A stretch of 31,157 nt of DNA from Acidobacteriota bacterium (GTDB lineage Bacteria > Acidobacteriota > Polarisedimenticolia > Polarisedimenticolales > JBBIHW01), in assembly GCA_037446795.1 (NCBI GenBank), contig JBBIHW010000001.1, positions 1 through 31,157 on the forward strand, written 5' to 3'. The notes beneath the pieces are model-generated. The model saw nothing but the letters and a program-made list of their open reading frames with translations. It made no database searches and had not been told where the DNA came from. A program made the position numbers and the translations under genes. Positions 10,686-14,600 of the stretch are shown here, in pieces; position 1 is the first letter of the stretch; each line of letters opens with the position of its first letter.

Positions 10686-11201
10686 ATGGCGACGCGCGCG
10701 AGAGGTCGGCGGTCCGCGTGGACGCGCCGGCTGGCCGGCGGGATCTGGCTCGGCGCCTGGATCGTGGTCCTCTACCTCATGGCCGCGCCCTGGAGAGATC
10801 TCGGCGGGATCGAGGAGGAGAGACTGCGCTGGCTGGAGGGGTTCGTGCTCCTCGCAGGCGTCTCCGTGGGCTTCACCCTGGGCCGCTTCGGCCGCGACAT
10901 GGCGGTGGCCGGCACGGGACGCACCCACGCCCAGCTCTTGCGGTTCGTCCTTTACCCGCCCGCGATCCTGACCGCGGCGGCGCTCATCGCGCTCTCGTTC
11001 CTGGGCGAGCGCGGTGCGGTCGGGGTCACGGCAACGGCGTTCCTCGCCTACTGGGCCGGCCTCGACCTCGCCTTCGGCGCGGTTCCGCTGATGGAAGGAA
11101 GGCCCTATGCCTTCGATCGCCCGCTGGAAGGGGATCCGGAGGAGCTGGAGGACCCCGCTCGGTCCGAGGAGAGCTGGGTTCCTCCGTGGGAGAGACCGTA
11201 G
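10686..11201 (+). CDS. Hypothetical membrane protein (about 4 hydrophobic segments, acidic C-tail)
   Basis: ATG with upstream GGGGAG, GC3-rich codons, four hydrophobic stretches. No recognised family. Confidence 0.7.
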   Translation: MATRARGRRSAWTRRLAGGIWLGAWIVVLYLMAAPWRDLGGIEEERLRWLEGFVLLAGVSVGFTLGRFGRDMAVAGTGRTHAQLLRFVLYPPAILTAAALIALSFLGERGAVGVTATAFLAYWAGLDLAFGAVPLMEGRPYAFDRPLEGDPEELEDPARSEESWVPPWERP

Positions 11202-11289
11202 CGACGCTCCCGCCCCGGTCCGCGGCGATCCCGGCGGCATTCTCCGGGCGGCGAGAGACCGACTTCCCGACGGGTCTCGCCGGAGGCTG

Positions 11290-11532
11290 TCAGGCCGACA
11301 GGCGGGCGCGGACGGCTTCGAGGATCCTCCTGGCGGAGGGGAGGACTCCGAGAAAGGCGAGCGCTCCTGCGTCCACGATCGGCTCCCCGTCCACGAGCAC
11401 CTTGAACTCGCCGTAGCGACCGTGGACCATGTCCACCTCCGCTCCGAGCTCCCGCCGGATGCGCGCCGCCACCCGGGCGGCGTGGAGCGAGGAGACTCAG
11501 TACGCGCAGTAACGAACCGCGACGCGACTCAT
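11290..11532 (-). CDS. Putative selenoprotein, SelW/SelT/SelH (Rdx) family, CxxU motif (UGA at 11499-11497)
   Basis: GGGAGG precedes ATG 11532. Translation: MSRVAVRYCAY(UGA)VSSLHAARVAARIRRELGAEVDMVHGRYGEFKVLVDGEPIV..., 80 aa with read-through. Shows the Rdx pattern YCxxU...G..GEFxVxVDG and has a downstream hairpin. Confidence 0.8.
11464..11482 (-). promoter_or_regulatory. Putative bacterial SECIS element
   Basis: The mRNA reads CGCCGCC-CGGGU-GGCGGCG: a perfect 7-bp stem whose G-containing loop begins 21 nt after the in-frame UGA. Confidence 0.6.
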
Positions 11533-11596
11533 CGAGAAGGCCCTCCCGCGCCCCCGCCGGTGCGGCATGGGGTCCGTCCGAACCCAGCGTGCGCCG

Positions 11597-11605
11597 ACCT
11601 TAGCA
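11597..11605 (-). promoter_or_regulatory. Candidate extended -10 promoter for the selenoprotein gene (TGcTAAGGT)
   Basis: TG-C-TAAGGT on the minus strand in the 102-nt gap between the PFOR stop and ATG 11532. Confidence 0.33.
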
Positions 11606-11634
11606 GAGAGCAGCGACCCGGGACCAGAGGGGGG

Positions 11635-14600
11635 CTATGCTCCCGCTCGGACCCTCCCCGGTCGCTCCACGGAACCCCTCGTCGGCGGGCTCGCGACCGA
11701 GAGCTTCGCCAGGTGCTGCAGGATCGCCGCGCGCCGCTCCACGATCTTCCGGGTCGCCTCGACGAACCTCCGCGCGGCCTCGGGGCCCGCCTCCCCGACG
11801 GCGCGGAAGCGTCCCTCGCGGCGGAGGAACCCCTCGACAGGGACCCTGGGAGCGGGGGAGTCCAGCACGAGCGGCGGCTGGCCCGCCTCCGCGCGGCGGG
11901 GGTCGAACCGGTAGAGCGGCCAGATCCCCGAATCCACGGCGAGCTTCTGCTGCTCGGTCCCGTGCACGAGCTCGTAGCCGTGGGCGACGCACGGGCAGTA
12001 GGCGATCACCAGCGAGGGACCTCGGTAGGTCTCGGCCTCGACGAGCGCCCGCACCGTCTGGGCGTCCTTGGCGCCGAGGGCCACCTGCGCCACGTACACG
12101 TGGCCGTAGCTCATCGCCATGAGGCCGAGGTCCTTCTTCGGCGTCCGCTTCCCCGTCACCGCGAACTTGGCCGCGGCGCCGAGCGGGGTGGCCTTCGACT
12201 GCTGGCCGCCCGTGTTCGAGTAGACCTCGGTGTCCAGCACGAGGACATTGACGTCCCGGCCGGTCGAGAGCACGTGGTCGAGCCCGCCGAAGCCGATGTC
12301 GTAGGCCCATCCGTCCCCGCCGACGATCCAGACCGTCTTCCGCACGAGCCAGTCGGCGATTCGCTCGAGCCTCCTCGCCTCGGGAAGCTCGGCCCCCCGG
12401 AGGCGGCGCTTCAGTTCGGCGACGCGCTCCCGCTGCGCGGCGACCTCCGCCTCGCTGCGGGCCTCGGTCTCGAGGATCGCCCGGGCGAGCGCCTCGCCCA
12501 CGTGCGGGGACAGCCGGACCAGAAGCTGCGCGGCCTGCCCGGCCAGGCTGTCCACGGCCAGCCGGAACCCGAAGCCGAACTCGGCGTTGTCCTCGAACAG
12601 GGAGTTGCTCCACGCCGGCCCTCGGCCCTCCCGGTTCGCGCACCAGGGGGTCGTCGGCAGGTTTCCGCCGAAGATCGAGGAGCAGCCCGTGGCGTTGGCG
12701 ACGAGCAGGCGGTCGCCGAACAGCTGGGTCAGGAGCTTGAGGTAGGGTGTTTCGCCGCAGCCGGAGCACGCCCCCGAGAACTCGAACAGCGGCTCGAGCC
12801 ACTGCGATCCCTTGACGTCGAGCCGCACCGTCTCCCGCGGAGGGTCGGGGAGGCCGAGGAAGAAGTCCCAGTTCGGCCGCTCCCCCTCGCGCAGCGCCGC
12901 GGCCGGCTCCATGCGGAGCGCCTTGCGCGACGGTTCCTGCTTGTCGTGGGCCGGGCAGACGGCCACGCACAGGGCGCAGCCGGTGCAATCGTCCGGAGCG
13001 ACCTGCAGCGCGTAGGACCACCCGCGGAAGTCGCGGCCCTCGTACGCGGTCGTCCTGAACCCCTCCGGGGCGCCCTCGAGAGCCTCCGGCGGGACGACCT
13101 TCGCGCGGATCGCCGCGTGAGGGCACAGCAGCGCGCACTTGTTGCACTGGATGCAGAGGGCCGGCTCCCAGACCGGCAGCTCGCGGGCGATCCCCCGCTT
13201 CTCCCAGCGCGAGGTGCCGACGGGCCAGGTGCCGTCCACGGGGAACGCGCTGACGGGAAGGTCGTCCCCGTGACCGGCGAGCATCGCGGCCGTGACGCGC
13301 TGGACGAAGTCCGGCGCCTCGGCGGGAACGACCGGCAACCGGCTTCGCGGGGAGGTCGCCCGGTCCGGGATGCGGACCTCGTGCAGGTGGGACAGGGCCG
13401 CGTCCACCGCAGCCAGGTTGCGGCGCACGGTGTCCTCTCCGGATCTCGCGTAGCTCCGGCGCACCGATTCTCGGATGCGGGCGAGCGCCTCCTCCCGCGG
13501 AAGCAGCCCGGCGAGCTCGAAGAAGCAGGTCTGCATGATCGTGTTGATGCGCCCGCCGAGGCCCACCTCTCGGGCGAGGCGGTGGGCGTCCACCACGAAC
13601 ACCGCAACCGCTTGGCGACGATCTCCTCCTGGACCTCCCGAGGCAGGTGGTCCCAGACCTTCTCCGGAGGATAGGGAGCATTGAGAAGAACCTTGCCCCC
13701 GGGCTCGGCCCGCTCCAGCACCCGGTGGCGCTCGAGGAGGGGGAACTGGTGGCAGGCGACAAGCTCCGCCCGCCGGAGGAGGTAGGGGGAGCGGATCGGC
13801 TCGCGGCCGAAGCGGAGGTGGGACACGGTCACCGCGCCCGACTTCTTCGAGTCGTAGACGAAGTAGCCCTGGACGTTGAGGTCCGTCGCCTCGCCGACGA
13901 TCTTCACCGAGCTCTTGTTGGCTCCTACGGTTCCGTCCGAGCCCAGCCCGAAGAACAGGGCGCGGAAGCGGCCGGCGGGCTCGATGTCGAAGTCGGGGTC
14001 GAACGGCACCGAGCTGCCGGTGACGTCGTCCACGATCCCGACCGTGAAGTGGTTTCGCGGCGCGTCCCGGCGAAGCTCCTCCAGGACGCCGCGGACCATG
14101 GCGGGGGTGAACTCCTTCGAGGACAGGCCGTAGCGGCCGCCCACGACGGTCGGGGGCCGCTCGCCGGCCAGGACGCCCGAGCCCCAGGCTTCCCGCACGG
14201 CGGCCACCACATCGAGGTAGAGCGGCTCGCCGACGGCGCCCGGCTCCTTCGTCCGGTCGAGCACGGCGAGGGCCCGGGTGGATCGGGGGAGGGCGGCCGC
14301 GAAGTCCGGAACGGAGAAGGGCCGGAACAGGCGGACCTGCACGACCCCGACCTTCTCCCCCCGGGCGGCGAGGTGCTCCACGGTCTCCCGGGCGGTCTCG
14401 GCCGCCGAGCCCATGACGACGACGACCCGCTCCGCCTCGGGGTGGCCGGCGTAGTCGAAGAGGCGATAGGCGCGGCCCGTGCGCGCGGCGAGCTCCTCCA
14501 TCGTCGCCCGAACGATTCCGGGGCAGGCGAGGGTGTACGGGTTCGCGGCCTCCCGCGCCTGGAAGAACGTGTCGGGGTTCTGCGCCGTCCCCCGCAGCAC

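Follow-up and report, generated by a model that had tools for sequence, protein, structure and literature searches.

The gene considered here lies on the minus strand of a 31,157-nucleotide stretch of DNA (hereafter the window, meaning the whole stretch that was analysed), which has a G+C content of 72.5%. When the TGA at codon 12 is read as U, the gene extends over positions 11290 to 11532 and encodes a product of 80 residues, from an ATG at 11532-11530 to a terminal TGA at 11292-11290. The translated frame begins with M-S-R-V-A-V-R-Y-C-A-Y-U-V-S-S and continues with no further stop until the terminal codon, just as the original prediction had read it (YCAY-UGA-VSS, open afterwards). The in-frame UGA occupies positions 11499-11497 and would supply the selenocysteine (Sec) of a C-x-x-U motif, whose cysteine, Cys9 of C-A-Y-U, is encoded at 11508-11506. 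A Shine-Dalgarno-like sequence, GGGAGGG, can be read at 11547-11541, and 9 nt separate its GGAGG core from the ATG. The mechanical list of open reading frames contains only a fragment of this gene, of 60 amino acids and with a GTG start (11290..11472); both this truncation and the presence of an SD-ATG twenty codons 5' of the fragment had been pointed out previously and were confirmed. The complete reading frame is backed by GC3 phase analysis over 11200-11530, by the Pfam Rdx family, and by orthologues that are collinear with the window protein along its full length.

The gene that precedes it on the same strand encodes a pyruvate:ferredoxin oxidoreductase (PFOR) and extends from 11635 to approximately 15200, as defined by Pfam domains in two frames and by the GC3 phase. 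Its TAG stop (11637-11635) is 102 nt before the ATG of the selenoprotein gene, in agreement with the original description of a position directly downstream of PFOR. In this assembly a 1-nt indel near 13600-13603 (minus strand) divides the PFOR gene between two frames, and a change of GC3 phase is seen at about 13.5-13.6 kb. One frame includes POR_N, PFOR_II and positions 1-105 of POR, and the other POR 102-172, EKR, Fer4 and TPP_C; the switch occurs at K-R-L-R / F-V-V-D-A-H (13595-13610) and fits one missing base. This frameshift could be an assembly error in a MAG of 457 contigs, or it could reflect a real pseudogene. At the other end, a convergent ORF of 171 residues (10686-11201, plus strand) supported by GC3 has its stop 88 nt away from that of the selenoprotein gene, and no Pfam match was detected for it.

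The 80-residue product belongs to the Pfam family Rdx (PF10262, formerly PF05169), which it matches over residues 3-54 with 27.5 bits against a gathering cut-off of 22.6; the 52 orthologues scanned all match this family at E <= 0.01. When the Sec codon is treated as a stop instead of as Cys, as in a six-frame search, the score is 19.7 bits, slightly below the cut-off. The NCBIfam models TIGR02174 (CXXU_selWTH, 14.4 bits versus 34.2) and NF041051 (SelTWH_Campy, 33.3 bits versus 88) are not reached; therefore, this clade is missed by the models that NCBI uses for naming such proteins. An AlphaFold2 model built on 52 sequences (pLDDT 91.4, pTM 0.80) shows β1 at residues 4-8, a helix at 13-29, three strands, a short helix at 56-60 and a helix at 67-79, with the redox motif C9-A-Y-U12 located between β1 and the start of helix 1. 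The 21 best PDB hits obtained with Foldseek are chains of 2ojl, 2oka, 2obk, 2fa8, 3dex and 2p0g (TM 0.71-0.83), and after these bacterial SelW-related entries MIEN1 and then mouse SelW are listed. According to this model, the predicted protein has a thioredoxin-like β-α-β-β-β-α fold in common with the solved SelW-related proteins.

A hydrophobic C-terminal segment, GALAFLGVLP, had been singled out as an unusual feature of this protein. The segment is indeed present, and it is conserved in the clade; nevertheless, it is not unusual, given that it falls inside the Rdx fold (in β4, the short helix and the loop that leads to helix 2) and that with hhalign it aligns, with a 3-residue insertion, with the region FSKK..GRFP of classical SelW-like proteins. 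A transmembrane or hydrophobic tail could be ruled out, since the segment is modelled confidently within the globular fold and is aligned to classical members. On the basis of the model, GALAFLGVLP is best described as a clade-specific surface variation and no membrane segment.

The conservation of the gene was examined in a species-level scan with one genome for each of 185,579 species, in which approximately 105 stretches were found and 80 loci were returned. These come from Acidobacteriota (Vicinamibacteria, Thermoanaerobaculia, Blastocatellia and Terriglobia), Gemmatimonadota, Planctomycetota, Chloroflexia, Eisenbacteria and others, and the identity among orthologues is 55-77% across phyla (loci L047-L126). 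Codon 12 was compared in 76 orthologues from Acidobacteriota, Gemmatimonadota and other phyla, and it is TGA in 73 of them and TGC in three; the TGC was read directly in locus L043. Likewise, when 41 related genomes were searched in six frames with read-through, 29 had matches, each match with an in-frame TGA at C-x-x-U, and among 52 sequences the C and the U/C of the motif are invariant. It had been anticipated that homologues would have C or U at this codon and would align 5' of the UGA, and this is what the 76 orthologues and their upstream codons show.

Comparison of the loci also bears on the role suggested earlier for this protein, the possible maintenance of PFOR or of other Fe-S/thiol enzymes, and on a stricter form of it, in which the protein is a dedicated partner of the adjoining PFOR, co-transcribed with it and keeping its thiols or Fe-S clusters reduced; such a role is compatible with the product being a selenoprotein. 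The short distance between the two genes, their common strand, and a window that is rich in redox genes beyond 11.3 kb are in line with this idea, as is the lack of a promoter- or terminator-like pattern between them; this last point carries little weight, as the scan of 11100-11800, which detected nothing, covers only sigma-70 and intrinsic-terminator patterns and says little on co-transcription with PFOR. Nevertheless, when PFOR was searched within 1.5-3 kb in 85 orthologous loci it was present at none of them, the sole match being the window itself. With tblastn, neither the C-terminal half of PFOR nor the convergent downstream ORF had a match in the first 19 loci, orthologous or paralogous, and when the flanking ORFs were clustered all against all, nothing emerged but artefacts from antisense ORFs and small clusters, none larger than 10 loci, with no recurring neighbour family; a conserved operon partner was rejected on these grounds. 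The contexts at other loci are different: ABC binding proteins, IS elements and an aminotransferase are among the neighbours, and one lineage has a PrdB/GrdB-like selenoprotein there. Since PFOR is absent from the 85 loci and no other neighbour recurs, its adjacency in the window is, as far as the comparative data tell, a local coincidence. The proposal that the protein keeps PFOR functional has no comparative support, and we consider a dedicated partnership improbable.

The PrdB/GrdB-like gene mentioned above was observed in locus L040 (3043-3960), and also in L041 and L042 (GCA_040961665.1), where ORFs of 166 and 132 residues are located directly upstream of the Rdx orthologue. It was detected neither at the other loci nor, using the L040 sequence as the query, in the genome of the window (90.8% complete). 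The two ORFs are joined by an in-frame TGA (V-P-A-U-P-F-C-C) into a product of approximately 305 residues with a weak match to the GrdB/PrdB family, which is probably another truncated selenoprotein.

In the public annotation, gene calls of 58-76 residues begin right after the UGA. According to this reading the UGA is a true stop that closes an 11-codon leader peptide, and a protein of approximately 60-68 residues is initiated separately. The first codon after the UGA (codon +1) is GTG in 16 of 75 orthologues, which would agree with such a start; however, in most cases it is no start codon (ATC 19, GTC 18, GTA 6, CTG 5), and in the window it is GTC, with the first in-frame start 20 codons beyond. 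At the protein level the 11 codons located 5' of the UGA are conserved: Tyr and Cys are found in 100%, Met in 91%, and the two Arg in 91% and 95% of the sequences, and the codon just before the UGA specifies Tyr or Phe across the orthologues. The third positions of these codons vary, with an entropy of 1.0-1.8 bits in nine of the ten sense codons; the Cys codon has 0.49 bits. Judged from the alignment, this pattern is characteristic of translation that runs in this frame to the UGA. These upstream codons, under selection at the amino-acid level, supply β1 and the Cys of CxxU, and a shortened product would be devoid of the first strand of the sheet and of the active site; moreover, TGC replaces TGA in the three orthologues mentioned above. 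Separate initiation is accordingly given very little credence, and continuous translation from the upstream ATG is the reading that will be followed here.

The second element of the gene is a hairpin with a 7-bp stem and a 5-nt loop, located on the minus strand at 11482-11464. The 5' arm corresponds to 11482-11476, the loop, CGGGU, to 11475-11471, and the 3' arm to 11470-11464. The original prediction was right about the 7-bp stem and wrong about its distance from the UGA, which it set at 21 nt; this is where the loop is found, and the stem starts at 14 nt. Counting the U of the UGA as 1, positions 18-24 pair with 30-36, and the stem codes for His-Ala-Ala-Arg-Val-Ala-Ala of helix 1. The hairpin is inside the coding sequence, its stem is pure G+C with no evident bulged U, and its small apical loop contains G and U; a small G-containing apical loop shortly 3' of the UGA is also what characterizes bacterial SECIS elements, and the spacing between UGA and loop is similar to theirs.

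Pairing of the stem is maintained in 97.1% of the stem cells of 50 sequences. In three of the seven pairs (18-36, 21-33 and 24-30) both partners are synonymous third positions. Covariation is seen at the outer pair (C-G 29, U-G 6, U-A 4, G-C 1 and unpaired 10, n=50), and the six inner pairs are invariant in pairing; a switch between Ala and Val at codon +7 turns a C-G into a U-G with the pairing kept, and it is the sole variation of that pair. Given that compensatory changes are absent from six of the seven pairs, the support for the stem comes from the invariance of synonymous sites and from one covarying pair, and not from broad covariation. This invariance is pronounced, i.e., the stem codons are nearly fixed as GCC for Ala +6 (75 of 75), GTC or GCC for Val/Ala +7 (73 of 75), GTG for Val +9 (75 of 75) and GCG for Ala +10 (74 of 75). 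At the third positions of these four stem codons the entropy is 0-0.2 bits, versus 1.1-1.95 bits at the other codons from +1 to +22, and the four-fold sites that adjoin the stem codons vary freely. In the clade the loop is CG(G/U)GU (CGUGU 41, CGGGU 28), the third position of the Arg codon being only U or G. Owing to the GCC/GCG repeats, an alternative register shifted by -3 pairs at 92% as well.

In the single-sequence fold the hairpin is the element of minimum free energy; however, its folding energy is no better than chance when compared with dinucleotide shuffles (z -0.87 and +0.27). In such a G+C-rich context the case has to rest on the comparison of orthologues, and it is only through this comparison, and not alone, that the predicted hairpin is significant. 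An Rfam scan of the whole window at gathering thresholds detected no family and no SECIS model.

The original prediction called for a search of the selA, selB, selC and selD genes. In the genome of the window, which is distributed in 457 contigs, the tRNA-Sec (70.9 bits; called by ARAGORN as tRNA-SeC, anticodon tca), selA (518 bits, cut-off 268), selB (326 bits, cut-off 242) and selD (376 bits, above the family cut-off) were all found, each one above its cut-off. This genome also has a second Rdx selenoprotein gene, of the classical type, in contig C118:3885-4091 (locus L127:1498-1725), with a score of 62.9 bits and one TGA. Its product reads I-E-Y-C-T-E-U-N-Y-E-P-R, and a GCCGCC-GGUCU-GGCGGC hairpin is located 15 nt past its UGA. 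Two predicted Rdx selenoprotein paralogues coexist, then, in the same genome. From the full pathway and the second Rdx gene, we infer that the organism uses selenocysteine and has several selenoproteins. The selD gene itself has an in-frame TGA at the active site (S-C-A-G-U-A-S-K; contig C183:3445-4383, locus L018, TGA at 1531-1533), with two candidate hairpins 14 and 29 nt 3' of it.

These results also bear on the idea that the UGA is recoded as an amino acid other than Sec, either by near-cognate read-through with Trp or Cys or through an alternative genetic code. Two database homologues, P0002 and P0004, have W and L, respectively, at the Sec position in their protein records, as this idea would allow. 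On the other hand, TGA also terminates the window gene and many of its orthologues, and therefore it is not a genome-wide sense codon; the Sec pathway of the genome is complete; and the alternation of the codon with Cys codons, together with a position-specific conserved hairpin, is a signature of SelB-dependent decoding. We regard recoding to another residue as highly improbable. The fragmented assembly and the 1-nt frameshift of the adjoining PFOR gene might also suggest that the TGA is an artefact of sequencing or assembly, or that the gene is a pseudogene in this MAG. The likelihood of this is negligible, since 76 independent assemblies, which represent several phyla, have TGA at the same codon in 73 cases and TGC in the other three, which makes a base-calling error implausible, and purifying selection is observed on both flanks of the UGA.

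It is very probable, from the comparative sequence data, that this gene encodes a genuine bacterial selenoprotein of the SelW-like/Rdx type, a member of a divergent clade of a long-known family. The main claim of the original prediction, i.e., an Rdx/SelW-like CxxU selenoprotein with a SECIS element that gene callers truncate, is in this way fully supported by comparative evidence. Translation would initiate at the ATG at 11532, and SelB with Sec-tRNA(Sec) would be recruited to the UGA at 11499-11497 by the G+C hairpin at 11482-11464, 14 nt 3' of it, so that selenocysteine would be inserted at the UGA rather than translation being terminated. The expected product is an 80-residue β1-CxxU-α1-β2-β3-β4-α2 protein with Cys9 and Sec12 at the N-terminus of helix 1. 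Considering the motif and the fold, this pair most likely alternates between a selenenylsulfide and a thiol/selenol form, and the protein would act as a small thiol-dependent oxidoreductase.

Bacterial SelW-like selenoproteins were catalogued by Zhang, Fomenko and Gladyshev in 2005 (PMC1088965) and by Zhang et al. in 2006 (PMC1794560). In the first of these reports, SelW-like CXXU proteins ranked first in abundance among the bacterial selenoprotein families of the Sargasso Sea and the function of the bacterial proteins was described as unclear (PMC1088965); in the second, it was noted that Cys homologues of SelW-like proteins are few or absent in organisms that use Sec (PMC1794560). The window clade resembles the classical SelW-like proteins in its size of approximately 75-80 residues, in the location of CxxU right after β1, in the scarcity of Cys forms and in the truncation by gene callers. 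In both, the UGA is followed, 14-15 nt further on, by a 6-7-bp GCCGCC/GGCGGC hairpin that codes for Ala-Ala-x-x-Ala-Ala of helix 1. Because the classical paralogues carry their GCCGCC-GGUCU-GGCGGC hairpin at the same distance from the UGA, the element is considered homologous across the SelW-like family, with a different loop in the V-R-Y-C-x-Y-U clade.

Despite these similarities, the profiles of the window clade and of the classical SelW-like proteins are only about 25% identical (hhalign, 98.5% probability, E 2.7e-15, 25% identity over 72 columns). The N-terminal region reads V-R-Y-C-x-Y-U-V-S-G-L-H in the window clade versus I-E-Y-C-x-E-U-N-Y-x-P-R in the classical proteins, and the region before helix 2 is G-A-L-A-x-L-G-V-L-P-S, with the 3-residue insertion, versus F-S-K-K-x-x-G-R-F-P. 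The hairpin loop is also different, being CG(G/U)GU in the window clade and GGUCU in the classical SelW-like genes; the classical paralogues of these genomes have a GGUC-type SECIS loop. Regarding the solved bacterial SelW-related structures (2fa8, 2ojl, 2oka, 2obk, 3dex and 2p0g), the model superposes on them over 77-83 columns with TM 0.75-0.83 and an rmsd of 1.9-2.8 Å. For one of them, 2fa8 (Agrobacterium Atu0228), a weak sequence similarity to the window protein is detectable (E 0.0037). However, the solved entries have CxxC, are approximately 100-108 residues long as deposited, and are only 19-32% identical to the window protein. Mammalian SelW (2npb) and MIEN1 (2ljk) show the same thioredoxin-like Rdx fold with CxxU/CxxC at the start of helix 1 (TM 0.66-0.68); they differ in their low identity (approximately 19-22%) and in the eukaryotic SECIS, which is of another type and is located in the 3' UTR. 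Glutathione and 14-3-3 have been reported as partners on the eukaryotic side, and the bacterial proteins are not known to have equivalents of them.

In an even sample of the phylum to which the window belongs, the clade was found in 4 of 301 genomes, all of them with TGA, and it is present in 5 of the 41 closest genomes. As identified by sequence, the clade occurs sporadically in Acidobacteriota, Gemmatimonadota and other phyla, mostly in MAGs from soil and groundwater, and its high identity across phyla together with this patchy occurrence suggests horizontal spread. It is conceivable, and we put it forward only tentatively, that the V-R-Y-C-x-Y-U clade constitutes an Rdx subfamily of its own, functionally distinct and Sec-obligate, which current annotation does not show, with a specialized redox function that has spread horizontally in soil and sediment bacteria; this possibility is raised because the clade coexists with a classical paralogue in the same genomes, is 60-77% identical across phyla although only about 1% of the sampled genomes of its phylum have it, and differs from the classical type in its SECIS loop and in the surface region that precedes helix 2.

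The public databases contain 961 detectable relatives of the protein, and among the best 120 of these 961 almost all are fragments of 58-76 residues that start after the UGA; those with a name are designated as 'hypothetical protein', for instance a 68-residue entry from Vicinamibacterales. The importance of the finding lies mainly in annotation, as the window gene and hundreds of its orthologues are stored without β1 and without the Cys/Sec active site. It opens no new mechanism, since both Sec decoding and the SelW-like family are textbook matters. A subfamily-specific model combined with the conserved hairpin would recover the truncated genes, and with these the numbers of selenoproteins counted for Acidobacteriota and Gemmatimonadota would be sharpened, both being soil phyla with thin coverage in the classic selenoproteome surveys.

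A third Rdx selenoprotein type, of intermediate character, was observed in two relatives of the window organism (loci L025 and L026, from genomes G034 and G022). It reads I-R-Y-C-x-x-U-G-Y/M, and its hairpin, GC(U/C)(G/A)CC-(G/C)GUGC-GGCGGC, occupies the same position as in the other Rdx types. Based on these sequences, at least three predicted Sec-containing Rdx clades are present in the order of the window organism.
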